From: Thermoanaerobaculia bacterium
GTDB taxonomy: Bacteria; Acidobacteriota; Thermoanaerobaculia; UBA5066
Assembly: GCA_963719225.1 (NCBI GenBank)
Contig: CAVRAY010000001.1
Span: forward strand, 608,001 to 672,000
DNA: 64,000 nt
Reading direction: 5' to 3'
The translations under genes and the position numbers were made by a program. Each line of letters starts with the position of its first letter. Within the stretch, counting starts at the first letter, position 1. Under the pieces are notes generated by a model. It ran no database searches and was not told the origin of the DNA. It saw only the letters and a list, made by a program, of their open reading frames with translations. Positions 2,842 to 54,386 of this stretch are shown one piece after another.

Positions 2842-3752
2842 GCGCGAGCCTCGGGCAACGTCACCGGCAGGCCGAGAATTCCGAGACGCGAGAGAGGCCA
2901 GTCGTAGGCAACGGGATCGGCGGGCGAGATCCGCCTCAGCCACGCGGTGGCTTCGCGTGACGCGGCGAGATCGGCGGCCTTGCGGCGCGTGAGGCCGATG
3001 CGGCGCGAGATGCGGTGGAGATGAACGTCCATCGGAAGCAGGAGGCGCGCGGGCGTGAAGCGCCCGCCCGTCCACAGGCCGAGGTCGAAGCCCTCCGTCC
3101 GGACCATCCAGCGCAGGAAGAGATGCGAGCGCTTGCAGGCGGAGCCAGCGGCAGGGGATGGCAAGAGGAATTTCAGCCCGCGCGAGGGCGTGGCGGCGTG
3201 GGGGGAAAGCAGTTGAAGATTTCTTAGAAAGGTAGCGAGGGCGGCGACGTAATCCGGCTGGGCGGCCCGATTCGGGTGTGCGCCACACGTTGCGCGAGGC
3301 GCTTTCGGCGCACCCTCTTCAGCTTCTAAGAAATCCCCCGTCTTCTTCTTTTCTTCGTCCCCCGCCGCGAAGAGAGCGCCGAGGGAGCCGTGCGCGTGCC
3401 GCGCCCTCTTCACCATTCGAAGAAACTCTTCGATGTCGTTTCCCGAAACCCAGCGATGCCGAAACGCACTGAGGGAGGCGATATCTGCCTCGTCCCATTT
3501 CTCGAGAAATGCCGCCGGGCTCGGCCCGAGAGCCGCGAGGACACGCGCGATCGACGCCTGGATGGATGCGACGCGCCCGAAGGCGAGCGAGGCGGAGACG
3601 AAGGCCACGACCTCGCGGTCTGCCGGATCGGCATAGCGGTGCGCGAAGACGAGCGGGTCCGAGTCGAGCCTCCGCGAGCGCCACTCGCGCCTGAGGGCCT
3701 CGAGGCGTTCGCCGAGGAGCACGAGGTTCGGGGGGCCGGCCGCGCGTCTCAC
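2838..3752 (-). CDS. TIGR02757/DUF2400-family protein (HhH-like) with an apparent insertion of about 30 aa
   Basis: DPLVFAHRY..DREV, SACKR..LFLRWMVR, LPMDVH..R and DPVAYDW motifs. Confidence 0.82.
   Translation of the reverse strand: MRRAAGPPNLVLLGERLEALRREWRSRRLDSDPLVFAHRYADPADREVVAFVSASLAFGRVASIQASIARVLAALGPSPAAFLEKWDEADIASLSAFRHRWVSGNDIEEFLRMVKRARHAHGSLGALFAAGDEEKKKTGDFLEAEEGAPKAPRATCGAHPNRAAQPDYVAALATFLRNLQLLSPHAATPSRGLKFLLPSPAAGSACKRSHLFLRWMVRTEGFDLGLWTGGRFTPARLLLPMDVHLHRISRRIGLTRRKAADLAASREATAWLRRISPADPVAYDWPLSRLGILGLPVTLPEARA
3215..3431. repeat. Dispersed motif cluster A: inverted pair plus a third copy, all inside the TIGR02757 CDS
   Basis: GATTTCTTAGAA (3218-3229) and TTCTAAGAAATC (3324-3335) form a perfect 12-bp IR. 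A third copy at 3404-3431 on minus reads GAAGAGTTTCTTCGAATGGTGAAGAGGG. Confidence 0.75.
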
Positions 3753-3758
3753 GCCTCT

Positions 3759-3768
3759 ACGCTAGCAT
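3759..3768. promoter_or_regulatory. Overlapping divergent -10 elements for TIGR02757 and hflX (leaderless type)
   Basis: Plus strand TAGCAT lies 7 nt before GTG 3776; minus strand TAGCGT lies 6 nt before GTG 3752; the 23-bp intergenic gap has no SD. Confidence 0.55.
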
Positions 3769-3775
3769 CCCCGCG

Positions 3776-4921
3776 GTGAGCCCGCGACGTCCCGCGAAGG
3801 AAGCTCCTCCTCCGCCCGAAGAAAAGCCCGATTCCCGCCGCACGATCCTCGTGGGCGTCTACGGGCGCGAGATCCCCAGGGCGATGGCCGAGGACCAGCT
3901 CGACGAGCTCGAACGCCTCGTGGACACGGCGGGCGGGCTCGTGGTCGCGCGAGCGCTTCAGGAGCGCCGGGGGCCCGATCCCGCGACGTACGTCGGCTCG
4001 GGGAAGGTGGAGGAGATCGCCGAGGCTGCGCGCGCCCTCGGCGCCGGCTGGACGGTCTTCGACGACGAGCTCACGCCCACGCAGGCCCGGAACCTCGACA
4101 AGAAGCTCCCCACGCAGGTGCTCGACCGTGCCGGCGTGATCCTGCGGATTTTCGCGTCCCGCGCGCGCTCGCGGGAGGCGATGACACAGGTCGAGCTCGC
4201 GAGGCTCCAGTACGAGCTTCCGCGGCTCGCGGGGCCGACGAAAGGCCTCGCCCAGCAGCGCGGAGGCGGCGCGTTCCGCGGTGGCGCGGGCGAGCGAAAG
4301 ATCGAGCTGGACCGCCGCCGCGTGCGCGCCCGCATCGCGAAGCTCAAGGAAGAGCTCCAGCACATCGAGACCCAGCGGGACGTGAGGCGGAAGGGGATGA
4401 AGCGCGTCGCCACGGTCTCCCTCGTCGGCTACACGAACGCGGGAAAGACGACGCTCTTCAACCGGCTCACGTCCTCGAAGGAATTCGCGGAGGACCGCCT
4501 CTTCGCGACGCTCGACCCCAGGCACGCCCGGCTCCAGGGCGTGGGCGGACGGGCCATCGTCCTGGCCGACACGGTCGGCTTTCTCCGCAAGCTTCCCCAT
4601 ACGCTCGTCGCGTCCTTCAAGTCCACGCTCGCCGAAGTGAAGGACGCGGACCTCCTCGTTCACGTCGTGGACGCATCGTCCGCACAGGCGGCCGAGCAGC
4701 GCGCCGTCGCCGAGGAGGTCATCGCCGGCTTCGGCGTGGAGAAGCGGCGCATCCTCCTCGCCTACAACAAGACCGACCGCCCGCACCCCGACGTTCTCGC
4801 GTCCGACGGGATCCGGATCTCGGCGGCGACCGGAGACGGCCTTCCCGAGCTTCGGAAGGCGATCGTCGCGCGGCTCTCGGCGCTCGGCGCGCGCATGCCC
4901 TTCTACGGATCCCCTTCGTAA
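3776..4921 (+). CDS. hflX: GTPase HflX
   Basis: GSGKVEE, ILRIFASRA, GYTNAGKT, LFATLD, DTVGF and NKTD motifs. Confidence 0.95.
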   Translation: MSPRRPAKEAPPPPEEKPDSRRTILVGVYGREIPRAMAEDQLDELERLVDTAGGLVVARALQERRGPDPATYVGSGKVEEIAEAARALGAGWTVFDDELTPTQARNLDKKLPTQVLDRAGVILRIFASRARSREAMTQVELARLQYELPRLAGPTKGLAQQRGGGAFRGGAGERKIELDRRRVRARIAKLKEELQHIETQRDVRRKGMKRVATVSLVGYTNAGKTTLFNRLTSSKEFAEDRLFATLDPRHARLQGVGGRAIVLADTVGFLRKLPHTLVASFKSTLAEVKDADLLVHVVDASSAQAAEQRAVAEEVIAGFGVEKRRILLAYNKTDRPHPDVLASDGIRISAATGDGLPELRKAIVARLSALGARMPFYGSPS

Positions 4922-4951
4922 TACGATCCATCACGTCCGGGAGGCAATGCC

Positions 4952-6100
4952 ATGAGCACACCCATCGAATATCGCCGCCGCGGCCAGGCCGTGTGGCTCG
5001 ACACCATCTCCTCGAAGATGATCCATTCCGGGCGGCTTTCGTCGCTGATCGAAGCCGGCTCGATTTACGGGGTGACGTCGAACCCGACGATCTTCGGCCA
5101 GGCCATCGTGAAGAACGAGGGTGACTACAACGCGCACCTCGAAAGCCTCGCGCGCGAGGGAAAGGACCCCTTCGCGATCTACGACGCGCTCACGCGAAAG
5201 GACATCGCCGAGGGCGCCGACGCGTTCCGAGCGATCCACGAGAAGAATCCCGTGGACGGGTGGATCTCGCTCGAGGTCCTCCCCTCGCTCGCGGCGGAGA
5301 CCGACAAGACCGTGGCGGAGGCGAAGAGGCTCTCTTCGGCGCTCGCGCGGCCGAACGTCTTCATCAAGGTGCCCGCGACGTCCGCGGGCGTTCCCGCGGT
5401 GCGCCGCCTGATCGGCGAAGGGATCTCGATCAACATCACGCTCATGTTCAACCGGAAGCATTACCGCGACGTCGCGAACGCCTACCTCGAAGGTCTTTCG
5501 GAGTTCGCGGGGAAGGGCGGCGACGTCTCGCGCGTCCACTCCGTCGCGTCGTTCTTCGTCTCGCGCGTCGACACGCTCGTCGACAAGCTTCTGGGGGAGA
5601 AGATCGGGAAGGCCGCAGGGTCGGAGAAAGCGAGCCTGGAGAGTCTCCTCGGAAAGGCGGGCCTCGCGAACTCGAAGGTCGTTTACGGGGATTATCTCGG
5701 GATCTTCGAGGGAGCGCCGTTCGCGGCGCTTCGCGCGAAGGGCGCGCGCGTTCAGCGGCCCCTCTGGGCGTCCACGGGCACGAAGAACCCCGCATACTCG
5801 GATCTTCTCTACGTCGAGAACCTCATCGGTCCCGACACGGTGAACACGATGCCCGAGAAGACGCTCGAGGCGCTCCTCGACCACGGCCGGACTCCGGGAG
5901 ACACGGTGCTCGAAGGGGTCGCGGAGGCGAAGAAGACGCTCGACGATCTCGCAGCCGTCGGGATCGACATCGAAGCGGTCGGCGAGCAGCTCCAAAGGGA
6001 CGGCGTCGTCCTCTTCGCCAAGTCCTACGACGAGCTCCTCGCGACGATCGAGTCGCGCCGCGCCGGGGCCGTGAAGGCCTCCGCCGGGGTGAAGGCGTGA
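4952..6100 (+). CDS. tal: Transaldolase
   Basis: WLD, GVTSNPTIF, IKVPAT, NITLMF, SFFVSRVD and RPLWASTGTKNP motifs. Confidence 0.95.
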   Translation: MSTPIEYRRRGQAVWLDTISSKMIHSGRLSSLIEAGSIYGVTSNPTIFGQAIVKNEGDYNAHLESLAREGKDPFAIYDALTRKDIAEGADAFRAIHEKNPVDGWISLEVLPSLAAETDKTVAEAKRLSSALARPNVFIKVPATSAGVPAVRRLIGEGISINITLMFNRKHYRDVANAYLEGLSEFAGKGGDVSRVHSVASFFVSRVDTLVDKLLGEKIGKAAGSEKASLESLLGKAGLANSKVVYGDYLGIFEGAPFAALRAKGARVQRPLWASTGTKNPAYSDLLYVENLIGPDTVNTMPEKTLEALLDHGRTPGDTVLEGVAEAKKTLDDLAAVGIDIEAVGEQLQRDGVVLFAKSYDELLATIESRRAGAVKASAGVKA

Positions 6101-8037: not shown

Positions 8038-8054
8038 CAGCCGGAGAGAACGAG

Positions 8055-9560
8055 ATGTCCAGCCCGATTCCGACCGACCCCGCGACGATCGTCATCTTCG
8101 GAGGATCCGGAGACCTCAGCAAGCGGAAGCTGGTGCCCGCGCTCTTCGAGCTCGACCGCGAAAAGCAGCTTCCTCCCGCGACGGCCATCGTCGGGTACGC
8201 GCGGACGGGCGAGTCCGACGACACCTATCGCGCCGAGATGAAGGCCGCGGTCGCCGAGTTCGCACGCACGAAACCCGTCGACGAAGCGGTCTGGAACAGC
8301 TTCGCCTCCAGGCTCTTCTTCTTTCGAGGCGATCTGAAGATTCCGAAGAACTATGCCGACCTCAAGGCGCGCCTCGACTCGATCGAGAAGGAAAGGGGCC
8401 TTCCGGGAAACCGGCTCTTCTACCTCGCGATCCCACCTTCTTCGATCGGCCTCGTCGTCGCCAACCTCGGCCAGGCGGGCTTCGTGTACCGGATCGACGG
8501 CGGCCCGTGGTCGCGCGTCATCGTGGAAAAGCCCTTCGGGCGCGATCTCGAGACGGCCCGCGCGCTGAACGAGGAGCTGTCCCAGGTCTTCCGCGAGCGG
8601 CAGATCTTCCGGATCGACCACTATCTCGGCAAGGAGACGACGCAGAACATCCTCGTCCTGAGGCTCGGAAACGGCATTTTCGAGCCGCTCTGGAACCGCC
8701 GCTACGTCGACCACGTGCAGATCACCGTCGCCGAGTGCATCGGCGTCGAGAACCGCGGGAAGTTCTACGAGGAAGCGGGAGTCCTCCGCGACATCATCCA
8801 GAACCACGTCCTCCAGCTCCTGTGTCTCGTCGCGATGGAGCCGCCCGTCGCCTTCGATCCGAACGCCGTGCGCGACGAGAAGGTGAAAGTGCTGAGGTCG
8901 ATCCAGCCGCAGTCCCCCGAGGAGATCCTGCGCGACAGCGTGCGCGGACAGTACGGACCGGGCGCGGTGGAAGGCCAGACGGTCGTGGGCTATCGCCAGG
9001 AGAAGGACGTCAACCCGATGTCACTCCGTGAAACGTACGCGGCCTGGAAGGTGCAGATCGAGAACTGGAGGTGGGCGGGAGTCCCGTTCTACCTGCGCGC
9101 CGGAAAACGGCTCGCCAAGCGCGTTACCGAGATCGCGATCCAGTTCAAGACCCCGCCGATCGCCCTCTTCCGCCAGGTCGGCGTCATCCGGCAGGAGCCG
9201 AACGTCCTCGTCCTGCGCATCCAGCCCGACGAGGGCATCGCCCTGAAGTTCGGGGCGAAGGAACCGGGGCCCGTGACGAAGATCGACCCCGTGACGATGG
9301 ACTTCCGCTACAGCGAGTTCTTCGGCGCGTCGCAGCCCGAAGCGTACGAACGACTCCTCATGGACGCCATCCACGGCGACTCCACGCTCTTCGCGCGGCG
9401 GGACGAGGTCGAGGCGGCCTGGGAGCACGTGACGCCTCTTCTCGACGTGTGGCGCGACAACCCGCCTCTCGACCACCCGAACTACGAAGCGGGCACGTGG
9501 GGACCCGACGCGTCGGTGGCTCTCCTGGCGAGGGACGGGAGACGTTGGCGAAGGCCGTGA
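8055..9560 (+). CDS. zwf: Glucose-6-phosphate 1-dehydrogenase
   Basis: GGSGDLSKRKL, EKPFG, RIDHYLGKE and RWAGVPFYLRAGK motifs. Confidence 0.96.
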   Translation: MSSPIPTDPATIVIFGGSGDLSKRKLVPALFELDREKQLPPATAIVGYARTGESDDTYRAEMKAAVAEFARTKPVDEAVWNSFASRLFFFRGDLKIPKNYADLKARLDSIEKERGLPGNRLFYLAIPPSSIGLVVANLGQAGFVYRIDGGPWSRVIVEKPFGRDLETARALNEELSQVFRERQIFRIDHYLGKETTQNILVLRLGNGIFEPLWNRRYVDHVQITVAECIGVENRGKFYEEAGVLRDIIQNHVLQLLCLVAMEPPVAFDPNAVRDEKVKVLRSIQPQSPEEILRDSVRGQYGPGAVEGQTVVGYRQEKDVNPMSLRETYAAWKVQIENWRWAGVPFYLRAGKRLAKRVTEIAIQFKTPPIALFRQVGVIRQEPNVLVLRIQPDEGIALKFGAKEPGPVTKIDPVTMDFRYSEFFGASQPEAYERLLMDAIHGDSTLFARRDEVEAAWEHVTPLLDVWRDNPPLDHPNYEAGTWGPDASVALLARDGRRWRRP

Positions 9561-10321
9561 AGGAAGTCCTCGCGTTCGGTACGGCAGACGACGTCGCGGA
9601 CGCGGCGGCTTTTCTCTTCGTGAACCTCGCAGACCAGGCGGTCGAGGAACGGGGAAGATTCTTCGTCTCCCTCGCCGGGGGAACCACACCGATTTCGAGC
9701 TATCGGGTTCTCGGGGCGCCATTGATTTCCTCGAGAGTGAATTGGGAACAGACGCACGTCTTCTGGAGCGACGAAAGGTGCGTTCCCGAGGGCCATCCGG
9801 ACCGGAACGACGAGGCTGCACTCGAGGCGTTCCTGCGAGAAGTCCCGCTTCCTTCGAAGAATATCCACCGCATCGCGGCGACGGAGCCGGACGCGGCGGA
9901 GCGCTATGAATCCGACCTGCGCGGGACTCTTTCCGGCGCCTCCTCCTCGAAAGGAATTCCACGTTTCGACCTCGTGCTCCTCGGCCTCGGGCCGGACGGC
10001 CATACCGCCTCCCTGTTTCCCGGGCACGCCTCTCTGGAAGAAAAGCAACGGCTCGTGCTGCGGATCGACGACGCGCCGAAGCCGCCTCCTTCGCGCATCA
10101 CGTTCACGCTGCCGCTCCTGAACGCCGCGCGCCACGTGGCTCTTCTCGTCACGGGGAAGGACAAGGCGCAGGCTCTCGCGCGCGTCCTCGCCGACGACGA
10201 GGCGCTGCCGGCTTCGCGACTCGACCCGGACGGCACGCTCACGATCCTCGCGGACTCCGGCGCTCTCTCCCAGTCGAAGGACCTTCCCCGCCCGGCCGCC
10301 TCGAGCCCCGCGGACCGATGA
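9557..10321 (+). CDS. pgl: 6-phosphogluconolactonase
   Basis: LAGGTTP, DERCVP, LGLGPDGHTASLFP and RITFT motifs; GTGA overlap. Confidence 0.93.
   Translation: MKEVLAFGTADDVADAAAFLFVNLADQAVEERGRFFVSLAGGTTPISSYRVLGAPLISSRVNWEQTHVFWSDERCVPEGHPDRNDEAALEAFLREVPLPSKNIHRIAATEPDAAERYESDLRGTLSGASSSKGIPRFDLVLLGLGPDGHTASLFPGHASLEEKQRLVLRIDDAPKPPPSRITFTLPLLNAARHVALLVTGKDKAQALARVLADDEALPASRLDPDGTLTILADSGALSQSKDLPRPAASSPADR
9724..9866. repeat. Degenerate inverted pair of the dispersed motif inside pgl
   Basis: Plus GATTTCCTCGAGAGTGAA at 9724; minus GGATATTCTTCGAAGGAAGCGGG at 9866-9844; codons here are locally atypical and AT-rich. Confidence 0.4.
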
Positions 10322-12503: not shown

Positions 12504-12504
12504 A

Positions 12505-14907: not shown

Positions 14908-15092
14908 GAAGAAGAAGACCGGGGATTTTCTTAGAAGGGTGAGTGGGGGCGACGCGCGGGACAGGCCTCGCTGGTTCCTCGAGCGGCTCAGCAGCGATTG
15001 CCCTTCTGAGAAATTTGCAGACCGGTTCAATCGCAGGAGCCGGTCTTATCTTAGAGAGGGTGCCTCCTTCTCTCTCTCTTCCTAAAACTCAA
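14908..15092. repeat. Dispersed motif cluster B, just after the queD-like stop and overlapping the hisJ 3' end
   Basis: 14909-14937 matches the reverse complement of 3323-3350 at 27/29 positions. Partner arm CCCTTCTGAGAAAT at 15001; a weaker second pair at about 15045-15092. Confidence 0.75.
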
Positions 15093-20207: not shown

Positions 20208-20303
20208 AGAGCAAGAAGAGAAGAGAAGAGATTTGCTTAGAAGATAAGAGGGGAGGGGTCACCGCGCGCTGATCGTCCCCTCTCCTTCAAAGAATCTCTC
20301 CTC
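20208..20303. repeat. Dispersed motif cluster C, just after the rubrerythrin stop
   Basis: Plus GAAGAGATTTGCTTAGAAGATAAGAGGGG (core 20230-20243) and partner arm CCCCTCTCCTTCAAAGAATCTCTC at 20277. Confidence 0.7.
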
Positions 20304-20310
20304 GAACGTT

Positions 20311-21612: not shown

Positions 21613-21618
21613 AGCGAA

Positions 21619-21645
21619 GGATTTTCACCTTCCAAGAAAAACATC
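21619..21645 (-). repeat. Single degenerate copy of the dispersed motif between the Fe-S oxidoreductase and DUF3501 genes
   Basis: Minus strand GATGTTTTTCTTGGAAGGTGAAAATCC. Confidence 0.45.
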
Positions 21646-21653
21646 GAAATGAA

Positions 21654-23451: not shown

Positions 23452-23590
23452 GAGAGAAAGAGAAGAACAGGGATTCGGATTTTCCTAGAGTGAGAAGAGG
23501 CGGAGGCCGACGGTCGTTCGTTGCCGGAAAGCGCAGCGCTGCCCCTCTTGCCTTCAAAGAAATCTTCCTCTTCATTTCTCTTCTTCTTTC
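23452..23590. repeat. Dispersed motif cluster D, after the lemA stop and overlapping the start and signal peptide of a TPM gene
   Basis: Plus ATTCGGATTTTCCTAGAGTG (23473) matches 53874-53893 at 18/20. Partner arm CCCCTCTTGCCTTCAAAGAAATCTTCC at 23542 shares CCTTCAAAGAA with cluster C. Confidence 0.7.
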
Positions 23591-24366: not shown

Positions 24367-25128
24367 ATGCGATACCGCAACCCGATCGCTCTTTCCCTCC
24401 TTCTCCTCGCCGGGGTTCTCGCCGCGGCCGGGCCGGTCGTTCCGCCGACGCCCACGCGGTACGTGACGGACAACGCGGGCGTCATCGCGTCCGACGCGAA
24501 TGCGCGGCTGGAGACACGTCTCGCCGACTTCGAGAGGGAGACCTCGAACCAGTTCCTCGTTTACACGCAGACGACGATCCCCGAAGGCACCACGCTCGAG
24601 GAATACACGGTCGCGTGCGCGCAGGCCTGGAAGGCCGGGCAGACGCAGAGGAAGAACGGGATGATCCTCTTCGTCTTCCCCGGATCGCGGAAGGCGCGCC
24701 TCGAGGTCGGCTACGGCCTGGAAGGCGCTATGCCCGACGCCCTCGCGCGCCGAGTCCTCGACGAGCAGGTGATCCCGCGCTTCCGGACGGGCGACTACAG
24801 CGGCGGGATCTCAGCGGGCGTCACCGCCGCGATCGCGGCCACACGTGGCGAGTACAAGGGGACCGGAAGGACGCGCGGGCAACGCCAGGAGCGGGGTCTG
24901 CCCTTCCCGCTTTTCCTCGCCCTCCTCTTCTTCTTTTTCTTCGGAATCATCCCCTTCTTCTTCGGGCGTCGCGGCGGATACTCGTACATAGGCCGCGGCG
25001 GCTGGGGCTCAGGGGGCTTCGGCGGCTTCGGCGGGTTCGGTGGCGGCGGCTTCGGCGGCGGGGGAGGAGGCGGCTTCTCGGGCGGCGGCGGCTCCTTCGG
25101 GGGCGGCGGCGCGAGCGGGAGCTGGTGA
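24367..25128 (+). CDS. TPM-domain (YgcG-like) membrane protein with a Gly-rich tail
   Basis: VTDNAG, LEVGYGLEGAMPD and C-terminal GGGGSFGGGGASGSW. Confidence 0.9.
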   Translation: MRYRNPIALSLLLLAGVLAAAGPVVPPTPTRYVTDNAGVIASDANARLETRLADFERETSNQFLVYTQTTIPEGTTLEEYTVACAQAWKAGQTQRKNGMILFVFPGSRKARLEVGYGLEGAMPDALARRVLDEQVIPRFRTGDYSGGISAGVTAAIAATRGEYKGTGRTRGQRQERGLPFPLFLALLFFFFFGIIPFFFGRRGGYSYIGRGGWGSGGFGGFGGFGGGGFGGGGGGGFSGGGGSFGGGGASGSW

Positions 25129-28440: not shown

Positions 28441-29397
28441 GTGGCGAGACGCGCCGCAGTCCCGGTGCTCTTTTCGACCCGGCATCGCGGCCTCAAGGAA
28501 CAGCTCAGGAGGCTCGCGCGCGCCGCGGACTCCGCGAATACCGTGCTCCTCCTCGGATCGCCCGGAACCGGCAAGGACCGGCTCGCGCGACTTCTCCACG
28601 AGCGCTCGTCGCGCGCGAACGCCCCCTTCGTGCGCGTGGATCTCGCGGCCGTGGCCGACGACCTCTTCGAGAGCGAGCTCTTCGGCCACGAGCGCGGGGC
28701 GTTCACGGGCGCCGTCGCGGGGAAGCCCGGCCTTCTCGAGGGCGCAGGCGACGGCACGCTCTACCTCGACCGGGTCGACGCGCTTTCCCTTCGAGCCCAG
28801 GGAAAGCTGCTGCGCGTCGTCGAGGAGCGCCTCGTGCGGCGCGTGGGGGGCATGCGTATGCTGCCGCTCAAGGCGCGCCTCGTGGCGTCCGCCGGGCCGG
28901 ATCTGCCGCGCCGGGCACGCGCGGGGACGTTTCGGGAGGATCTCTTCTACCGCCTCGCGGTCGTCACGGTCAGCCTTCCGCCTCTCGCCGAGCGCCGCGA
29001 GGACCTCGTTCCGGCGGCGCGCGCCCTCGCGAAGGCCGCGGGCGGCCCGGCCACGTTCACGGCCGCCGCCCGACGCGTGCTGCTCTCCCACGCGTGGCGT
29101 GGAAATTTTCGCGAGCTCGAAAACGTGGTCCGCCGTGCGGCGAACGACGCGACGGCCGCGGGCGCGGCCGCGATCGATGCCCCCCACGTGAAGCTCACGG
29201 GCCCCTCGGATCCCGAGGCGCTTCTCCACGCGGCGGCCCACGCGCGCTGGACTCTGCGGCAGCTTTCGGACGCGTACATCACCCTCGTTCTGGACGAGGC
29301 GGGCGGAAACGTGACGGAAGCGGCGCGCCGCCTCGGGGTCGCCCGCAAGACCCTCTATGCGCGCAAGGATGGCGTCCGAAGAGAACGATCTTCTTAG
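28441..29397 (+). CDS. Sigma-54-dependent activator-like protein with no N-terminal regulatory domain and a degenerate Walker B
   Basis: GSPGTGKD, ESELFGHERGAFTGA, LYLDRV (instead of DE), FREDLFYRL, WRGNFRELEN and a Fis-type HTH. Confidence 0.85.
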   Translation: MARRAAVPVLFSTRHRGLKEQLRRLARAADSANTVLLLGSPGTGKDRLARLLHERSSRANAPFVRVDLAAVADDLFESELFGHERGAFTGAVAGKPGLLEGAGDGTLYLDRVDALSLRAQGKLLRVVEERLVRRVGGMRMLPLKARLVASAGPDLPRRARAGTFREDLFYRLAVVTVSLPPLAERREDLVPAARALAKAAGGPATFTAAARRVLLSHAWRGNFRELENVVRRAANDATAAGAAAIDAPHVKLTGPSDPEALLHAAAHARWTLRQLSDAYITLVLDEAGGNVTEAARRLGVARKTLYARKDGVRRERSS

Positions 29398-29404
29398 AAG
29401 GTGA
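29378..29404 (+). repeat. Single copy of the dispersed motif that supplies the TAG stop of the activator gene
   Basis: GAAGAGAACGATCTTCTTAGAAGGTGA. Confidence 0.6.
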
Positions 29405-29539
29405 TATGGCTTGCGTCCTCTTGGGGCGTGATATCCTCCGCCATTCTCGAAGGGCCCCAATGCTCCTCACGGAGCAGTAAACCGGCCGATCGCAACGTTT
29501 TACCGCCTATCCAAAGTCATCTCGAGGGAGACGACCAGC

Positions 29540-36486: not shown

Positions 36487-37350
36487 CTAGCGCCCTCCTG
36501 CCTTCCGCCATTCCCATTCGGCGAGGCGCTCGCGGGTGCCGAGGCCGATGGCGCGGTGCAGGTCGACGAGGAGCCGGGAGGCCTCGGGGTCGCGGAAGGG
36601 AGGCGGGCCGAGGCGCGTGAGGACCGCCTCGGGGTGCTCCGGAGGCGCGAACGAAGAGCGCAGCGCGGCGACGGGCTCGCCGGGACGGTAGTACAGCTCG
36701 GGCCTCTCCAGGATGTGCCGCGCCAGCGGCTCGGGCGGCTCGGCCGCCTCGCCCGATTTAGAGGCGTCCGCCTCGCGGGCTTCGGCCTTTCGATCGGGGC
36801 GCGTCCGCGCGCGTTGCAGGCCCTGGAGAAGCTCCTCGCGCGGGACGCCGCGAAGGAGGAAGACGAGGAACGGGTCGTCCTGGAGGCGGTCGCCGAGCAG
36901 CACGGCGAGGGCGCCGGCGTGCGCGCACGGCTGCTCGGACTCGGCGCACGAGCATCTCGTGACGACGTCGCCGGCCTCCAGCGGAAGGAGCGAGCGGCCC
37001 GTTTCGCTGAACGCGCTCTCCACGTCCTCCGGTAGGCGGCCGGCGAGAAGGTCGGCCGCGTACCGGGCGCGCGCCGCCATCGCCTTGAGGACACGGCGCT
37101 TGACGACCGACTCGAGCGGCCGGAGCGATAGCGACGTCTCCTCCATCTCGCCGCCTGCGCCCCGGACGTCCGAACGGGCCCCGGAACGCGCGATCTCGAG
37201 CGACGTGACCGCGCCCGAGGCCGCGACCGCGCGCCCTTCCGTGAGTGCGTCCTCCCAGCCGAGCGAAGCGAGCCGCGCGAGGAAGCGATAGGCCCATCCG
37301 CTCTCGGGAGGCGTCGCGCGCGGAAGGAGAGCCTTCTTGCGGCGCGGCAT
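36487..37350 (-). CDS. SWIM zinc-finger protein
   Basis: CSC......CAH SWIM motif, LLAGRLP and DPFLVFLLRG; coupled to the SNF2 gene. Confidence 0.85.
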   Translation of the reverse strand: MPRRKKALLPRATPPESGWAYRFLARLASLGWEDALTEGRAVAASGAVTSLEIARSGARSDVRGAGGEMEETSLSLRPLESVVKRRVLKAMAARARYAADLLAGRLPEDVESAFSETGRSLLPLEAGDVVTRCSCAESEQPCAHAGALAVLLGDRLQDDPFLVFLLRGVPREELLQGLQRARTRPDRKAEAREADASKSGEAAEPPEPLARHILERPELYYRPGEPVAALRSSFAPPEHPEAVLTRLGPPPFRDPEASRLLVDLHRAIGLGTRERLAEWEWRKAGGR

Positions 37351-40300
37351 CAGTGGCCTCCGTCCGTCTCGATCGCGCTCGTGTCGAGAGCCACGAGCTC
37401 CGTGAGCTGCTCGTCCGAGAGCGTCGCGATCCACTGCTCGCCGGCGCCCACGATCGAACGGGCCAGCGCTTTCTTCTCCTCGATCATCCGGTCGATGCGC
37501 TCCTCGAGCGTGCCCTTGCAGACGAACTTGTGGACCTGGACGTGCTCGGTCTGACCGATGCGGAAGGCGCGGTCGGTCGCCTGCTCCTCGACGGCGGGAT
37601 TCCACCAGCGGTCCACGTGGAAGACGTGCGACGCGCGGGTCAGGTTCAGGCCGGTGCCCCCCGCGCGCAGCGAAAGCACGAAGAACGGAGGCGGGTCCTC
37701 ATCCTCCTGAAAGCGGCGGACCATCTCCGTGCGCGTGTGGCGCGGAACCGCGCCGTGCAGGAAGAGCACTTCGCAGCCGAAGCGCTCCTTCAGCTCGGCG
37801 ACGAGGAGATGACCCATCTCGGCGAACTGCGTGAAGAGCAGGGCGGGGCTCTTCTCGGCGAGCGTCTCTTCGCACATCTCGAGGAGGCGGGAGATCTTCG
37901 CCGAGCGGCCGTTGCGCCGGGCGTCCCCGAGAAAGAGAGCCGGGTGATCGCAGATCTGCTTGAGGCGGAGGAGAAGGAGCAGGATCTTCGCCTTGCGGCT
38001 GCGTCGGTTCGCCCGCCCGATGCCGGAAAGAAGGGATCGGGTCGTCGCGCGATAGAGCGCGGCCTGCTCGCGCGTGAGGCCGACGAGCTCCTTGGTCTCG
38101 ATCTTCTCGGGGAGGTCGGGGACGACGCCGGGGTCGGTCTTGGCGCGGCGCAGAAGGAACGGGCCCGTCACGTGGCGCAGGCGCGCGGAAGCGGCCGGGT
38201 CGTTGTGCCGCTCGATCGGGATCGCGAAGCTGCGCCGGAACGCGTCGTCCGTGCCGAGGAGGCCGGGATTGAGGAAGTCGAAGATGGACTTCAGCTCGGC
38301 GAGTCGGTTCTCGACGGGCGTGCCGGTGAGGGCCGCTCGCCGATGCGCGCGGAGGGAACGCGCGGCGCGCGACTGCGCGGCCGCCGGGTTCTTGACGTTC
38401 TGCGCCTCGTCGAGCGCGAGGTATTCCCACGTAACGCCCGAAAGGAGTGCGCGGTCCCGATGCACGAGGGCGTACGTCGTGACGAGGAGGTCCACCTCTT
38501 TGAGGAGCCGCGAGAACGCCTCGCCGCTCGCGCGCCCCGCGCCGTGGTGCACGAGGACGCGAAGCTGGGGGGCGAACCGCTCGGCCTCACGGACCCAGTT
38601 CTCGGCGACGGACGTCGGGCACACGAGAAGGGACGGACCAATGCGCTCTCCGGCGTCGCGCGCGGCGAGGAGAGCGGCGAGGAACTGGATCGTCTTGCCG
38701 AGCCCCATGTCGTCGGCGAGGCAGGCGCCGAGGCCGCGCGAGAGCAGGAAGCGCAGCCATCCGACGCCGCGCATCTGGTAGGGGCGCAGGATGCCCGTCA
38801 GGCCGCGCGGCGCGGTGAAGCCCGCGATCTCGCGCCGGGCGGTCTCGGGATCGAGGAGACGCCCGACCCATCCTTCGCCTCCCACGGCGTCGACGAGGAC
38901 GTCGTCGCGCTCGCCGTCGAGCCCTCCCGCGAGCCGCAGCAGCTCGCCGAGCGTCGTGCGGCCCCCGGGCCTGCGGTCGAGGAGGCGCCGCGCCTTCTCG
39001 AGGTTCTCCTTGTCGAGGAGAACCCACTCCCCCCGGATCTCGACGAGCGGGATCTGCCGGGCGGCCAGCTCCTCGAACTCGTGAGGAGAGAGGAGCGCGT
39101 CGCCCACGGCCACGCGCCAGTCGAAGTCGACGAGGGCATCGAGGCCGAAGCGCACCACGGACGAGTCGGCTTCGCCCGTTCCCGGAGCTCGCGCGACGAG
39201 CTTGAGCGCGACGCGCGCGAGGCTGCCGCCGCCGGGCAGGCGAACGGCGATGCCGGCCTCGCCGAGCAGCGGGGCCTCGTCGGACAGGAAGCGCCACGCT
39301 TCGTCCGGGGACAGGACGACGCCCGTAGGGTGCCTCTCCTCGAGGCTGCGCGCGACGGGGCGCGAGAGCGCCGCCGCCGTTCCGAGACGCGCGAGGAGGG
39401 TGTCCTGCGGGTTCGTGAACAGGCGCCCGCGCCGTCGCACCGATCCTTCGGTCGTGGCCCAGATCTCCTCCGCCGAGAGGGAGACTTCCGGGCTGTCCCC
39501 GGACTCGAGGACGTACGCGAGCGAGAACGGACCGCCGACTTCGGACGGCGGCACGACACGGATGCCGAGGCGGAGCAGGCTCTCGGGAAGGGGATCCAGG
39601 AGCGGAAGGCTCCACTCGCTGAGGCGCGAAAGGACGGCCGGCTCGAGCGCGCGGGCCGGAGGAGCCGCGAGGGCGGCGATGACTTCCGCCTCCATTGTGT
39701 CGCCCGCGCGGCGCCGCTCGGCCGGAAGGACGTCCCTGAGCACGTCGCGCGCTGCCGCGTCGACGGCCTGGTCGAGAAACGCGAGGAGGAGGCCGCGCGC
39801 CGGCGGAAGCGCGCTGTCGGCTCCGAGGCGCGCGCCCGGCGGCAGGATCGCGCGCGAGACCGGAGGCATCGCCTCGGCCAGACGCCGGAGACGTTCCCTT
39901 TCGTGCGGATCGTCGAGGACAGGCCGCCAGACGGGATGAGTGCCGTTCGCTCCCGGCGCGATGCGCCTGCGAAGCAGGAGGTCGAACGCCCACCGCGCTC
40001 CTTCCGCCCAGTAGTCGAGATCGTCGCCTGCCGACACGGAGAAAGGGCGCGCGCGGAGCGCCGCGGGGAGCGCGAGGAGGGTTTCGAGTGCGGCCGCCAT
40101 CGGCAGGACGAAAGCAGGCACTTCGTAGATCCGGAGCGCCGCGGAAAAGGGCGCCGCATAGTCGGCGGGCTCCCGGAGAGCCGGCGCAGACGGAACGGGG
40201 CGCCCGTGAACCGCCGGGACGGCGAGCAGGAGCGTGACGGTCTCTGTGCGCGGCGAGAGACACGTCGCAAGGCTCTCGGCGCTCAGCGCCTCCAGGATCT

Positions 40301-40421
40301 CGCCCGGCTCGAGCGCGCGCGGGTGTCGATCGCGCCCGTCGTGCGGAACGAAAAGTCCCTCCGCCCAGAAGGCGAATCCGGACGGGCGCGGAGCACCGTG
40401 CAGGACGATCAAGCCCTCCAT
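37350..40421 (-). CDS. SNF2-family (SF2) ATPase/helicase
   Basis: LRPYQ, LADDMGLGKT, DEAQNVKN, LTGTPVENR, GTGLNL and QATDRAFRIGQ motifs. Confidence 0.94.
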   Translation of the reverse strand: MEGLIVLHGAPRPSGFAFWAEGLFVPHDGRDRHPRALEPGEILEALSAESLATCLSPRTETVTLLLAVPAVHGRPVPSAPALREPADYAAPFSAALRIYEVPAFVLPMAAALETLLALPAALRARPFSVSAGDDLDYWAEGARWAFDLLLRRRIAPGANGTHPVWRPVLDDPHERERLRRLAEAMPPVSRAILPPGARLGADSALPPARGLLLAFLDQAVDAAARDVLRDVLPAERRRAGDTMEAEVIAALAAPPARALEPAVLSRLSEWSLPLLDPLPESLLRLGIRVVPPSEVGGPFSLAYVLESGDSPEVSLSAEEIWATTEGSVRRRGRLFTNPQDTLLARLGTAAALSRPVARSLEERHPTGVVLSPDEAWRFLSDEAPLLGEAGIAVRLPGGGSLARVALKLVARAPGTGEADSSVVRFGLDALVDFDWRVAVGDALLSPHEFEELAARQIPLVEIRGEWVLLDKENLEKARRLLDRRPGGRTTLGELLRLAGGLDGERDDVLVDAVGGEGWVGRLLDPETARREIAGFTAPRGLTGILRPYQMRGVGWLRFLLSRGLGACLADDMGLGKTIQFLAALLAARDAGERIGPSLLVCPTSVAENWVREAERFAPQLRVLVHHGAGRASGEAFSRLLKEVDLLVTTYALVHRDRALLSGVTWEYLALDEAQNVKNPAAAQSRAARSLRAHRRAALTGTPVENRLAELKSIFDFLNPGLLGTDDAFRRSFAIPIERHNDPAASARLRHVTGPFLLRRAKTDPGVVPDLPEKIETKELVGLTREQAALYRATTRSLLSGIGRANRRSRKAKILLLLLRLKQICDHPALFLGDARRNGRSAKISRLLEMCEETLAEKSPALLFTQFAEMGHLLVAELKERFGCEVLFLHGAVPRHTRTEMVRRFQEDEDPPPFFVLSLRAGGTGLNLTRASHVFHVDRWWNPAVEEQATDRAFRIGQTEHVQVHKFVCKGTLEERIDRMIEEKKALARSIVGAGEQWIATLSDEQLTELVALDTSAIETDGGH

Positions 40422-42453: not shown

Positions 42454-42459
42454 CCAGGT

Positions 42460-43831: not shown

Positions 43832-43843
43832 TCGGGCAGCTTT

Positions 43844-46533: not shown

Positions 46534-46541
46534 CGCACCGA

Positions 46542-47828: not shown

Positions 47829-47858
47829 CCGGAGAGGGAGTCTAAGGGGCGCGGCTCC

Positions 47859-48722: not shown

Positions 48723-48749
48723 GCGGGCCTCGTGTTTAAGATAGGAACG

Positions 48750-50294: not shown

Positions 50295-50714
50295 CTACCA
50301 GCGCATCCGGTAGAGCATCACGTAGACGACCACTCCGGTGACGGAGACGTAGAGCCAGATCGGCAGCGTGAAGCGGGCGAACTGCCGGTGCCGCTCGAAA
50401 CGGCCCCGCCGGGCGAGGACGAACGTCGTGATCGCGAGCGGCGCGACGAAAGCCGCGAGGATCGTGTGCGTGAGGAGGATCGCGAGATAGAGCGTCCGCG
50501 CGCCGCCCGTGCCGGGGAACCGCACGCTTCCGACCTGCGCATGGTAAGCGAGGTACGAGACGAGGAAGAGAGTCGAGCACAGGAAGGCCGCCGTCATCGT
50601 GCGGCGGTGCGCGGCGATCCGCCGCCTTCGGATGAGCGTCCAGCCGACCGCGAGGAGGACGGCGCTCGTCGCGTTGAGGAAGGCGTTCAACGTCGGCAGG
50701 TCGCGGACCGTCAT
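50295..50714 (-). CDS. DUF420-family membrane protein
   Basis: LPTLNAFLN, HRRTM, FLVSYL.YH, H..LA and WLYVSVTGVVVY motifs. Confidence 0.9.
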   Translation of the reverse strand: MTVRDLPTLNAFLNATSAVLLAVGWTLIRRRRIAAHRRTMTAAFLCSTLFLVSYLAYHAQVGSVRFPGTGGARTLYLAILLTHTILAAFVAPLAITTFVLARRGRFERHRQFARFTLPIWLYVSVTGVVVYVMLYRMRW

Positions 50715-51493: not shown

Positions 51494-51500
51494 GTAACGT

Positions 51501-52472
51501 TCATGCCGTGTGCGCTCCGTCCTCCGGCGCGTCCGCCTCGCGGAAGCGCCGTCCCGTCTTCGCGATGAAGACATCCTCGAGCGACGGCGCACCGAGGGTT
51601 ACGGATTTGAAGGCGCCCGGGAACGCTTCGACGAGACGCGGCACGAACGTGTGCGCGGCCTGCCGCTCCACGCGGACCGTGGGTCCGACGACGGTAATCC
51701 GGCCGGCCTCGGCGCCGAAGCGGCTTTCGATCCGGGCGGCGAGCGCCGGCGCGCCCGCGTCGTCCTTCGACTCGACGGTCACGACGTCTCCGCCGAGTGT
51801 GGCCTTCAGCGCGGCGGGCGTGTCGAGCGCGAGGAGGCGTCCCCGGTCGAGGAGGCCGATGCGGTGTGCGGCCTCCGCCTCCTCGAAGAGGTGCGTCGTC
51901 AGGAGAATGGCCGTGCCCGCGCGGGCAAGAGAAGCGAGCGCGTCGATGAGATCGCGCCGCGCGCCCGGGTCGAGGCCGGTCGACGGCTCGTCGAGGAGGA
52001 GGACGGGAGGGGCGTGAAGGAGGGCCTTGGCAATCTCCACGCGCCGCGCGAGGCCGCCGGACAAAGTCTCGACGAGGTCGCCCGCCCGGTCCTCGAGATG
52101 GAACATTTCGAGCAGCTCGCCCATCCGCGCAGTCCGCGTTCCCGAGCGGAGCCCGTACAGGTCGCCTTGGAGCGCGAGGTTCTCCGCGACGGTCAGCTTC
52201 TTGTCGAGGCTCGGAGCCTGGAACACGACGCCGAGGCGCCGGCGGACGACGCGGCCCGCCACCGTGGGATCGAGCCCGTCGATCGAGAAGCTCCCTTCGC
52301 CAGGAGGCAGCAGGGTCGCGAGAATCCGGAAGAGGGTCGTCTTGCCGCCGCCGTTCGGGCCGAGGAGCGCGAAGATCTCGCCGCGCGAGACCGAAAACGT
52401 CACGTCCGTCAGCGCGGCGCGCGCGCCAAAGGCGCGGGAGAGGGAACGGGCTTCGACGGCGGGAGGCGTCAC
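51501..52472 (-). CDS. ABC transporter ATP-binding protein
   Basis: GPNGGGKTT, LSGG, LLLDEP and TTH motifs. Confidence 0.92.
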   Translation of the reverse strand: MTPPAVEARSLSRAFGARAALTDVTFSVSRGEIFALLGPNGGGKTTLFRILATLLPPGEGSFSIDGLDPTVAGRVVRRRLGVVFQAPSLDKKLTVAENLALQGDLYGLRSGTRTARMGELLEMFHLEDRAGDLVETLSGGLARRVEIAKALLHAPPVLLLDEPSTGLDPGARRDLIDALASLARAGTAILLTTHLFEEAEAAHRIGLLDRGRLLALDTPAALKATLGGDVVTVESKDDAGAPALAARIESRFGAEAGRITVVGPTVRVERQAAHTFVPRLVEAFPGAFKSVTLGAPSLEDVFIAKTGRRFREADAPEDGAHTA

Positions 52473-52497
52473 GTGTCGGGTGAGAGTTCTTTCGGCG

Positions 52498-53379
52498 TCA
52501 GATGCGGTCGAGGACGAGGAGGATGAGGATCGCCGGGAGCCAGCCGATCGACGCGAAGAAGAGGGAACGGGCGCGAATGTCCGTCGTCTCGCGCGCGAAG
52601 GCGAGCGAAGAGCGGAGGAAGAAGAGCGTGAGGATGAACGCTCCGACCGCATAGGCGAAGCCGGCCGTCCCGACGAGCGACGGCAGGAGGCTGATGGGAA
52701 GGAGGACGGTCGTCCAGAGAAGGGTCTGCCGGGCCGTGCGCGTGCCGGACGGGTCGATCACGGGAAGGATGCGCACGCCGGCGCGGGCGTAGTCGACACG
52801 GTGGCGCCATCCGATCGCGAAGAAATGCGGAAGCTGCCAGACGAAGAGGATCGCGAAGAGCGCGAGACCCGGAAGACCGAGGCCGCCAGCGGCCGCGGTG
52901 TATCCCCCGAGAGGCGGCAGCGCGCCGGGCACGGCGCCGACGATCGTGGAGGCGTGCGACCGCGTCTTCATCGGCGTGTAGAGGCAGACGTACGAGACGA
53001 GCGTGAAGGCCGCCAGAGCGGTCGTCAGAACGTTCGTGAAGAGGAAGAGCTCGACGAGGCCCGCGACCGAAAGCGCGCCCGCGAAAAGAGCCGCGCCCCG
53101 GAGGCTGATGCGGCCGGAGGGCAGGGGACGGTCCTGCGTGCGTTTCATCAGGCCGTCGAGATCCACCTCGCGCACCTGGTTGAACGCGCTCGTGCCGGAG
53201 GCGACGAGGGCGGTTCCCAGGAGCGTGTGGAGGAGGAGCGGGACGGCGAGAGACGAAAGCGGCCCGCTCGTGCCCGCGACGAAGCCGACGAAGGCCGTCA
53301 TCACGACGAAGACCGTGATGCGCGGCTTCGTGAGGGCGACGTAGGAGGCGAACGTGGAGGGGTTGCGACTCAGGCTCAT
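52498..53379 (-). CDS. ctaB: Protoheme IX farnesyltransferase (heme O synthase)
   Basis: LTKPRI, NQ..E.D.D..MKRT..RPLP, YTPMK, GALPP and WQLPHF motifs. Confidence 0.95.
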   Translation of the reverse strand: MSLSRNPSTFASYVALTKPRITVFVVMTAFVGFVAGTSGPLSSLAVPLLLHTLLGTALVASGTSAFNQVREVDLDGLMKRTQDRPLPSGRISLRGAALFAGALSVAGLVELFLFTNVLTTALAAFTLVSYVCLYTPMKTRSHASTIVGAVPGALPPLGGYTAAAGGLGLPGLALFAILFVWQLPHFFAIGWRHRVDYARAGVRILPVIDPSGTRTARQTLLWTTVLLPISLLPSLVGTAGFAYAVGAFILTLFFLRSSLAFARETTDIRARSLFFASIGWLPAILILLVLDRI

Positions 53380-54386
53380 GCGCGGATGGCGGAGCTTACC
53401 GCGTTCGCCCGATTCCGGCAGGCCCAGAGGCAGGCCGCGGCGAGGACGCCCGTGACCCAGCATAGGGCGCCCCCGGCGAGGTGGGCGGCGGTGAGGGACG
53501 GCGCCTTCCTGGACCAGATGGAGAGGGCGCCGAGCAGGACCTGAACGCCGACGAGGCCGAACCAGGCCGCGGCGAGTCTGGCGAAAACGGCGTTCCGCTC
53601 CGAGAGCCGCGCCAGCGCGCGCACGGCCGTGAGGACGAGGACGAGAACGACGACCGCTCCGATCCGGTGCGCGAGGTGGAGGCCCACGCCGCGGCGCTTG
53701 AGCTCTTCCGCGGAGGGCCAGAGGCCGCCGAAGGCCGTGGGGAAGTCGGGGATGGCAAGGCCGGCGCCGGTGTGACGCATGACCGCGCCGAGGACGATCT
53801 GGACGTAGATCGCCGTGGTCGCAATGACGACCCAGCGAAACGCGCGCATCGCTTCCGCATCCTTCGAAGAAGAATTCGGATTTTCTTCGAGTGGAAGAGA
53901 AAGAGGGCGCGCCGTCAAATCGTTCCAGGTTTTCGAGCACATGAGCGCGACGAGCGCGGTGAGGGCGAAGACGATCTCTGCGAGAGCGGCGTGCGCGGAG
54001 GAGACGGCAGGCGGAAGGAGAAGGATGACCGTCAAGCCGCCCAGAGCGGCCTGCAGAAGAATTGCGCCGAACGCGGCGGCTGCGAGGACCTTGACCGCTT
54101 TCTTACCCTCTAGGAAAAAAAGAAGAGCACCCAGCTCCAGACCTACCAATGTGGAGACCGCCGCCGCGATGAGCCTGTGGCCGTGCTCGAACAGGATGCC
54201 GCCGACCATCGGGGGCATGACTTTTCCGTACGAGAGCGGCCAGTCCGGGACGGCGAGGCCCGACCCGGTGGACGTGACGAGCGCACCCGCGACGAGGAGA
54301 ACGAACACTCCGAACGCGACGCCCCGCGTCGCGACCCTCAGAATTCCGGCATTCCGCGCGGCGTGCGCGTCCTGCTCCTTCGTCAG
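53376..54386 (-). CDS. ctaA: Heme A synthase (COX15/CtaA)
   Basis: GALVTSTGSGLAVPDWP, EHGHR, Q..LGG.TV, H..HR and C-terminal HL motifs. Start inferred at CTG overlapping the upstream TGA. Confidence 0.9.
   Translation of the reverse strand: MTKEQDAHAARNAGILRVATRGVAFGVFVLLVAGALVTSTGSGLAVPDWPLSYGKVMPPMVGGILFEHGHRLIAAAVSTLVGLELGALLFFLEGKKAVKVLAAAAFGAILLQAALGGLTVILLLPPAVSSAHAALAEIVFALTALVALMCSKTWNDLTARPLSLPLEENPNSSSKDAEAMRAFRWVVIATTAIYVQIVLGAVMRHTGAGLAIPDFPTAFGGLWPSAEELKRRGVGLHLAHRIGAVVVLVLVLTAVRALARLSERNAVFARLAAAWFGLVGVQVLLGALSIWSRKAPSLTAAHLAGGALCWVTGVLAAACLWACRNRANAVSSAIRA
53866..54127. repeat. Dispersed motif cluster E inside ctaA
   Basis: Plus GAAGAATTCGGATTTTCTTCGAGTGGAAGAGAAAGAGGG (to 53907); minus TTTTTCCTAGAGGGTAAGAAAG (about 54120-54097). 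Both are AT-rich patches in a GC-rich CDS. Confidence 0.62.

Follow-up and report, generated by a model that had tools for sequence, protein, structure and literature searches.

An oriented, AT-rich DNA word of ~36 bp, consisting of the core TTTCTTAGAAGG and purine-rich flanks, was found throughout the genome rather than in one window, the refined matrix detecting 822 copies compared to ~8 in the control. Genomes of a single soil lineage of Acidobacteriota each hold some 800 copies. The unit is the pair of copies. The motif is not mainly an inserted element, and its copies often overwrite ordinary gene sequence, with amino-acid changes as the price. The pairs are likely the mark of an undescribed system whose protein component reads both copies and promotes the spread of such DNA.

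Enrichment and pairing of the motif

The original prediction had named 15 copies in the window, the whole stretch of 64,000 nucleotides analysed here, and a matrix scan found all 15 at their positions (Table 1). Several of them lie within genes, a feature that had gone unmentioned. The identities given between distant copies (27/29 and 18/20) were correct, and the six convergent window pairs were confirmed at the centre distances in Table 1. The proposed consensus proved too tight, each of its two spellings finding only two window copies at 3 mismatches. One strong match, at 53867, was new, and weaker matches were observed at 24941 on the minus strand (17 bits, lacking a proper core), 58367 on the plus strand (14 bits) and 8327 on the minus strand (13 bits). 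For the copies at 21634 and 29395, no partner of at least 7 bits was present within 300 bp.

Table 1. Motif copies in the window (positions are those of the window; pair distances are between core centres)
Core centre	Extent	Strand	Bits	Pairing and context
3225	3207..3242	+	33	Within TIGR02757-family gene 2838-3752 (minus strand)
3328	3311..3346	-	30	Faces 3225 at 103 bp; encodes DFLEAEEG in the TIGR02757-family gene
3420	3403..3438	-	32	Second minus copy facing 3225, at 195 bp
9731	9713..9748	+	19	Weaker copy; within pgl (9545-10321)
9857	9840..9875	-	16	Weaker copy; within pgl, faces 9731 at 126 bp; encodes PLPSKN
14932	14914..14949	+	35	Between convergent queD-like and hisJ-like genes
15008	14991..15026	-	12	Weak partner, 76 bp from 14932; 20-27 bits in four relatives
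20238	20220..20255	+	36	3' of rubrerythrin gene
20290	20273..20308	-	24	Partner, 52 bp from 20238; among the shortest pairs
21634	21617..21652	-	22	Unpaired
23486	23468..23503	+	24	At start of gene presumed to be TPM-like
23557	23540..23575	-	35	Partner, 71 bp from 23486
29395	29377..29412	+	28	Unpaired; across stop codon of sigma-54 activator gene
53867	53850..53885	-	25	Extra copy, back to back with 53887
53887	53869..53904	+	31	Within membrane-protein gene 53376-54308
54112	54095..54130	-	14	Partner, 225 bp from 53887; encodes FFLEGKK in gene 53376-54308

The copy at 3225 was retained in all five relatives aligned in orientation across it, and that at 3328 in G008 and G010, the region being unaligned in G001, G020 and G021. 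The copy at 9731 was strong in five relatives and degraded in four. The ~45-bp stretch holding 21634 was missing from G009, G024 and G015, and in G017 the hairpin element described below sits there. The membrane-protein gene, which we take to be heme A synthase-like, gave no NCBIfam match at 1e-8.

A matrix seeded solely on the 15 window copies found 751 genome sites compared to 20 in the control, and an order-5 Markov control yielded 0.24 matches of at least 16 bits per 64 kb. The enrichment also held against synonymous-codon shuffles. A facing partner on the opposite strand 35-300 bp downstream was found for 640 of the 822 copies (78%), while the same search gave 21 upstream and 25 at random positions, so that convergent pairs are in strong excess genome-wide, as had been proposed. 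The findings that the original prediction had named as fatal to it (no enrichment over a codon-preserving shuffle, no convergent excess, or a match to a known insertion sequence, MITE or regulator site) were not obtained. The spacing has a floor near 65 bp, and about one-fifth of sites are without a partner. Both arms were lost together above chance (4 pairs with both lost, 8 with one lost, 36 kept; Fisher p 0.018). Across 231 pairs, arm-to-arm identity in the flanks equalled that of shuffled pairings (block z 0.5, 0.8, -1.1 and 0.5), and it was therefore deduced that a consensus is read, rather than that the arms base pair; in the core, z was 2.2, with one position at 4.0. Of the two explanations first offered, a genome-wide oriented site used in pairs was thus borne out as regards enrichment, pairing and arms that match a consensus. 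The suggested 10.5-bp phasing of the spacing was not found (Rayleigh 1.4 and 0.5), nor was a binding protein. No periodic bending signal was found within pairs.

Any transcript across a pair has a purine-rich arm followed by its complement, and 251 of the 822 copies are intergenic, as might be expected of an RNA or single-strand signal (a long-range stem, terminator or RNase site) or of a conventional regulator site. This explanation was deemed very improbable. Compensatory covariation was absent, the coding copies were equally sense (287) and antisense (284), most of them lay far from gene ends, convergent gene ends held only 30 copies, and no Rfam match was obtained in the window. Still less probable is that a recombinase acts on the arms to invert the spacer, a possibility raised by their inverted orientation, by the near-palindromic core with its asymmetric centre and by the six tyrosine recombinases in the genome. 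None of the 75 alignable orthologous spacers was inverted (216 examined; 106 too diverged, 30 unanchored and 5 empty), and many spacers are parts of housekeeping genes. The contigs of the four soil runs used in checking for spacer inversion and excision were mixtures.

Copies within genes and inserted pairs

The majority of copies (571/822) lie within predicted genes, and 555 coding sites were counted compared to 32-40 after synonymous-codon shuffles. The cores cover 0.18% of coding DNA and contain 57 of all 274 TTA codons, and relative to outgroup orthologues there was an excess of FEE[I/N] (14 versus 1), [P/L]SKK (20 versus 4) and SSSS (20 versus 3). In 36 of 50 outgroup comparisons, including genes that are presumably IleRS, HisRS and RluD, the sequence between the arms was native coding sequence, in several cases without any indel, and the arms in these genes were built from substitutions and short in-frame insertions. 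Gap openings were also more frequent near sites, at 1.7-4.4 per 100 bp compared to 0.14-0.27 elsewhere in genes; some of this excess may arise because sites persist in tolerant loops. An undescribed DNA transaction or chromosome function must lie behind a force strong enough to alter amino acids and to introduce runs of poly-serine or lysine/glutamate at hundreds of positions in housekeeping enzymes.

The second explanation first offered was an arm-only, non-autonomous element of REPIN or MITE type, in which an enzyme mobilises any DNA located between two arms, the spacers of old copies becoming unrelated through decay. This accounts for only a minority of pairs, though clean whole-pair insertions exist. 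A complete 123-bp pair occurs only in G017 and is missing from four relatives in which the locus is otherwise conserved, a 127/169-bp pair occurs only in G003 and G017, and 7 of the 50 coding pairs were mostly inserted sequence. Moreover, a 130-bp hairpin element whose ends resemble the motif was recently amplified in the same two genera. Its distribution is patchy, with high copy numbers in G011, G017 and G026 and no copies in G000, G001 and G009. It inserts at motif sites, 19 of 28 loci having a site no more than 150 bp away (5.5-7.7% expected), and often lies no more than 10 bp from a core. As the sole cause, such an element is nevertheless already disfavoured by the native sequence that most coding pairs bracket. 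The spacers are unshared, 58 of 246 having any other match, mostly short or in paralogues, and they fold no better than their flanks (z -0.53 versus -0.59). The cleanest insertion displayed no target duplication on inspection by eye. The flanks of the hairpin element had no transposase gene in common across 25 metagenome loci or 25 of the 28 G017 loci, the three overlapping ones having been dropped. In G000, only two loci resemble the hairpin element, and the proposal that all pairs are decayed hairpin elements was rejected. Candidate enzymes also failed to track the motif: Y1/RAYT was found in 2 of 14 g1 genomes but in all 14 genomes of the motif-free genus g2, its flanks being without the motif, and IS110 was found in just 7 of 14, so that both Y1/RAYT and IS110/IS1111 were rejected as agents. 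In sum, the arm-only element was considered a rather unlikely explanation.

Distribution among genomes and along the chromosome

In a class-wide sample, the paired pattern was present in 19 of 301 genomes, all from two sister genera (g1 and g18), with 27-245 exact copies per genome in g1 and 6-61 in g18. The motif-negative genomes counted include the unpublished G037, on which alone no claim rests. With sister genera lacking the motif, a neighbouring genus lightly loaded and species tenfold apart, the motif was concluded to have arisen within one family. Many pairs stay at the same place across the genus, and turnover is fast, with 25-33% discordant between species ~85% identical. These differences in load form a natural series in which the gene behind the motif could be sought and in which it could be tested whether function or molecular drive maintains genome-wide words of this kind, a matter of long-standing debate.

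With the origin and terminus placed by dnaA, a parS-like site, GC skew and a dif-like site, intergenic density per 100 kb was found to rise from origin to terminus, from 12 to 125 along one arm and from 48 to 107 along the other, and coding density from 7 to 20 and from 9 to 17-23, respectively. No replichore strand skew was found (325 leading and 330 lagging for paired copies; 74 and 93 for single copies). Chi, KOPS, matS and HIP1 are likewise words over-represented genome-wide and embedded in genes, matS being terminus-biased. The present motif resembles them in both respects, but it differs in having no replichore skew, obligate facing pairs, a longer site and a visible change in protein sequence.

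The rise in density with distance from the origin, together with the many pairs kept in place, favours the main rival explanation, that of chromosome architecture. Here, a dimeric protein would bridge facing sites and hold in place a small loop or the tip of a supercoil, chiefly in the half of the chromosome around the terminus and under ordinary selection, and thereby help folding, decatenation or segregation. A candidate could be a basic 164-aa protein (G000 C1:3836045-3836539), predicted by modelling to have two three-helix HTH domains and an AT-hook-like tail, as a motif pair lies just past the 3' end of its gene. However, this protein is family-wide, no residues cleanly track the motif, and it was not found in 3 of 26 motif-rich genomes (these being 82-91% complete). 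The best structural match of its model (Z 5.9, rmsd 3.0, 53 aligned) was at a generic level, a Foldseek search gave no match at E 0.001, and a structure atlas gave only leads under 0.9. Also against architecture are the spacing and bending results above, the irregular spacing of clusters along the chromosome (CV 1.19), a weaker gradient in G028 and a load that varies more than tenfold among related species. Architecture was accordingly judged a real possibility, though on balance an unlikely one.

Proposed spread of the site pair by molecular drive

The best reading, which we adopt tentatively and at somewhat less than an even chance, is that of a protein-read site pair spreading through a molecular drive like that of uptake sequences. 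A sequence-specific protein needing two head-to-head copies would act on the 65-300 bp between them, and the pair would single out the DNA carrying it for preferential uptake, protection or use as a recombination donor. Alleles gaining or improving a pair could then spread by the drive, even at some protein cost. The mechanism probably includes nicking or strand exchange in or close to the core, and the indels and insertions seen there would follow from this.

The copies of DNA uptake sequences act singly and are not known to need a distant facing partner, whereas here 78% of copies face a partner across 65-300 bp of ordinary DNA. The present motif also differs from them in the in-frame insertions that build its flanks and in the grading of its density towards the terminus. 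As outlined in PMC2817400, the uptake sequences of Pasteurellaceae (USS) and Neisseriaceae (DUS) are similar to it in occurring as hundreds of copies of a lineage-specific word with a core and flanks, ~2/3 of them in genes, in several frames, and raising the encoded peptides. The molecular-drive model set out there covers single sites and gives no reason for pairs, which weakens the reading, as does the origin-terminus gradient, which is not predicted by uptake bias. The reading is further weakened because about one-fifth of sites are unpaired, because competence genes, being widespread, are no evidence of uptake bias, and because comEC, the pilin, ParB and the tandem-HTH protein occur throughout the family or order.

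Other paired or palindromic families were compared in the same manner. REP/BIME and REPINs (PMC3116915; PMC1525189) share the inverted doublets, less conserved spacers, lineage specificity and targeting by other mobile elements. They are described there as extragenic, forming hairpins with compensatory changes, and located beside RAYT, unlike the present pairs, which are mostly intragenic and without covariation, folding excess or a linked RAYT. Rickettsia palindromic elements and MITEs (PMC10969869) also occur in-frame in unrelated housekeeping genes, and some of the present pairs are likewise true insertions; the Rickettsia elements are shared ~150-bp inserts, while the interior here is unshared and mostly native gene sequence. 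No paper describing the motif was returned by a full-text search of the literature, which worked at the level of titles and abstract openings and left most subscription papers outside.

With respect to the agent of the proposed drive, a lineage-specific gene screen with ~1 Mb of outgroup DNA found no protein limited to motif-bearing genera, and no small gene enclosed by a lone pair was found. comEC was present in all 14 g1 relatives and in G000, and a FimT-like pilin in 24 of 26 genomes; both also occur in motif-free genera of the family. comEA-like genes were present, as identified by motif. The genome has four HU/IHF matches and two HTH_17 genes, the latter PTS-fused regulators. G000, which is 97% complete, had one weak Y1-like match (E 1e-5) in a site-free region. 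Further candidates were rejected: a ParB paralogue (two copies, order-wide), GxxExxY and DUF559 nucleases (none in G000) and a four-helix-bundle gene (one sub-threshold match, no adjoining sites).

A more specific form of the proposal, held with greater doubt, is that machinery encoded by the host recognises a pair of head-to-head copies, makes cuts or strand exchanges at their cores and handles the intervening 65-300 bp as a transferable cassette. If true, this would represent a new type of DNA transfer or conversion system based on paired sites, and a genome-wide gene drive, with hundreds of proteins rewritten, tRNA synthetases included, and itself parasitised by the 130-bp hairpin element. 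An enzyme that acts on two sites and has a long, asymmetric target might also prove useful as a tool.

Viruses gave no pair matches and no hairpin matches; three single-motif matches in AT-rich viral contigs were taken as chance. A search for other paired words in 40-200 kb from each of seven other genomes gave one, tandem heptamer arrays in G045.

Facing pairs of an oriented word

All 15 copies of the AT-rich word (about 36 bp) listed for the window by the original prediction were found at their positions, and the identities quoted between distant copies were correct. The seed matrix built from these copies gave 751 sites of at least 18 bits in the 4.75-Mb genome carrying the window (G000), compared to 20 in an order-5 Markov control, while a refined matrix gave 822 compared to about 8, confirming strong genome-wide enrichment. 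The core is near-palindromic, TTCTTNGAA, set within TTTCTTAGAAGG. Its flanks are a purine-rich run, spanning about -25 to -3, and a tail resembling GAARRGGG. The intergenic copies taken alone produced the same form.

The convergent pairing originally claimed was evident, as neighboring sites no more than 300 bp apart comprised 260 convergent, 9 divergent, and 82 same-strand cases. When weaker partners were admitted, 640 of the 822 sites had an opposite-strand partner 35 to 300 bp downstream, compared to 21 upstream and 25 expected at random. Spacing had its floor at around 65 bp, was commonest at 75 to 80, and tailed off to 300; a peak at 93 was attributed to paralogous kinases, and the phase of about 10.5 bp raised by the original prediction was not seen. 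Outside the core, the arms of a pair were no more alike than arms taken from different pairs (231 pairs; one core position at z 4.0), and each arm is therefore deduced to be read against a consensus, independently of mutual pairing. The motif is a directional consensus word whose value lies in facing pairs.

As had been described, the spacers were not common to different pairs; they folded no better than their flanks. No bending periodicity was found within pairs, although their inside is richer in GC steps. Unlike in invertons, 0 of 75 alignable orthologous spacers were inverted, and, unlike polar motifs, the sites in G000 showed no replichore skew. The features tested for REPINs (excerpts of PMC3116915) and the shared internal sequence of RPEs and MITEs (excerpts of PMC10969869) were likewise absent from the pairs, and a search of the window gave no Rfam family for the motif. 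Judged by sequence alone, the motif appears to work most like uptake sequences, the closest known system, but these follow a single-site pattern. A literature search found no published description of the motif; the two-genus limit, negative tests, terminus gradient, and site-targeting hairpin element reported here are new. The motif is real, strange, and testable.

Gain within genes, turnover, and chromosome position

By our own gene calls, coding DNA accounts for 571 of the 822 sites, 287 of them sense and 284 antisense and with every frame represented, and both arms lie inside one gene in 158 of 260 pairs. Synonymous-codon shuffling left 32 to 40 of 555 coding sites, so that enrichment held against codon-shuffled sequence also. 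Motif cores contain 57 of the 274 TTA codons of G000. Across about 156,000 residues aligned with outgroup orthologues, G000 had an excess of FEE[I/N] (14 versus 1), [P/L]SKK (20 versus 4), SSSS (20 versus 3), and FLEG (18 versus 7), with little difference for FLRR (6 versus 5) and FLE (58 versus 55). Outgroup comparison indicated that substitutions gave rise to the arms, with no indel at all in RluD, and that the flanks in genes often came from short in-frame insertions yielding SSSS or KKKEED runs. Apart from the NCBIfam matches of window genes, gene names, RluD included, are presumptive assignments from sequence. The motif is gained in small steps within genes, at a cost.

Between species about 85% identical, 34/106 (G007), 12/48 (G003), and 13/39 (G017) sites were discordant, with only one of the two species carrying the site; many others were conserved throughout the genus. 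In 76 comparisons around coding sites, gap openings were about 10 times as frequent as elsewhere in genes, and changes at first and second positions two to three times as frequent, an excess for which tolerant loops may partly account. Joint loss of both arms was favored (p 0.018, small numbers). Whole pairs were sometimes gained, one of 123 bp in G017 only and one of 127/169 bp in G003 and G017, which agrees with the mobile arm-only element originally suggested. Against it, coding-pair spacers were native in 36 of 50 outgroup comparisons; in 7 others the spacer was mostly inserted sequence, and in 7 it was partial. These comparisons are not independent, since overlapping pairings and kinase paralogues were each counted. 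Such an element, which would cover a minority of pairs, is considered improbable.

From origin to terminus of G000, site density rises two- to tenfold in intergenic DNA and by a factor of two to three within coding sequence, the 6% contamination of this assembly having its effect, through the suspect part of C2, limited to origin-side bins. The gradient is weaker in G028, and site clusters are unevenly spaced along the chromosome (CV 1.19). Origin and terminus were placed using dnaA, GC skew, a parS-like site, and what we take to be a dif-like site. Anchoring of loops for chromosome structure would account for this terminus bias better than a benefit at the DNA level does, but leaves the lack of 10.5-bp phasing unexplained, and is rather unlikely. 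We tentatively prefer a locus-by-locus benefit at the DNA level, along the lines of the biased-uptake model in excerpts of PMC2817400, as it may best explain why the motif is costly, irregularly spaced, and variable in load. A two-site protein would act on the DNA bracketed by the pair, and pairs would be expected if a short fragment needs to be recognized at each of its ends. Readings other than these are given very little weight.

Locations of the features discussed (C1 and C2, contigs of G000; L, extracted loci)
Feature	Location	Observation
SNF2-type helicase gene	window 37350-40421	best NCBIfam match SCO1167 family, under its cut-off; rest of window housekeeping
About 15 paralogous Ser/Thr kinase genes	C1:2295000-2320000 and other loci	one pair at 93 bp common to all, adjoined by poly-serine insertions of varying length
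IS110-family element, five copies	C1:1111460, 2199188, 2201174, 2206651, 2209686	one motif copy about 290 bp past each transposase stop; insertion places presumably attC-like
comEA-like genes	C2:230143-230224; C1:1007221	motif site at or just before start in both
164-aa protein gene (P0001)	C1:3836045-3836539 (L242)	motif pair just past 3' end
Second parA-parB-like operon	C1:2037864-2039524	adjoins dif-like site at terminus; two ParB genes found order-wide
Suggested contamination from relative	C2:about 600000-871796	duplicated housekeeping genes, shifted GC
Hairpin-element relics	C1:3285866-3285994; C2:335953-336098	
Hairpin-element loci	L274-L298, L359-L386	
Tandem heptamer arrays (GTTTCAG-type), another repeat	L216-L218 (G045); also G071, G199, G216	facing across short unrelated spacers; absent from motif-bearing genus

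Range, hairpin element, and candidate readers

An exact-pair scan of GTDB returned at least 118 loci, and the 80 matches listed were all titled Thermoanaerobaculia or Acidobacteriota. The 12-mer was present in 28/28 other genomes of the genus of G000 (27 to 245 copies each), compared to at most one copy in each of 32 genomes of other genera, and a slightly looser form had 6 to 61 copies in four genomes of the sister genus g18. The pair pattern occurred in 19 of 301 class genomes (G000, 16/16 of the motif-rich genus g1, and 2/2 of g18) and in 0 of the other 282; no site was present in 180 kb of outgroup G029 or in 840 kb of outgroup G175. The exact word is thus not class-wide among the genomes searched; other lineages may carry different words.

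Relatives contain a 128-bp mobile element of two hairpins, the second including GGCTGCATCAGCAGCC, with a terminal half-site-like AGAA. Its distribution is patchy: copies numbered 32 in G011, 25 in G017, 22 in G026, 8 in G323 (g18), and 0 in G000, with control levels in other genera. At 19 of 28 distinct loci the insertion point was no more than 150 bp from a G000 site (5.5 to 7.7% expected), with many points within 10 bp of a core, and 16 of 23 anchored G017 copies lay within intervals containing a G000 site, these counts including kin and not being independent. The inner half of one arm was often replaced by the element, as if the core were a breakage point. The motif is locally unstable and serves as an insertion target, resembling the REPs targeted by insertion sequences in excerpts of PMC1525189. 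As G000 holds two relics alone, most pairs are not remains of this element. No linked transposase was found beside the examined loci, and four loci gave no Rfam match.

Several candidates for a reader, a putative protein recognizing the motif, were rejected. RAYT-type Y1 proteins were found in 2/14 g1 genomes but in 14/14 of the motif-free genus g2, and their ends lack the motif; Y1 (HUH) transposase-like genes are almost universal in the family, yet not in g1. IS110 was present in 7/14 g1 genomes. ParB, comEC, and a FimT-like pilin are vertically inherited and extend across the family or order. The motif at both comEA-like gene starts could be chance at such site density. The basic 164-aa protein, which occurs family-wide, has no Pfam family; its model (pLDDT 73) contains two HTH-like domains together with an AT-hook-like tail and a final helix, with likeness to paired and mariner DNA-binding domains at a generic level only (Z 5 to 6). 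It is a doubtful candidate for the reader and is likely a nucleoid protein.
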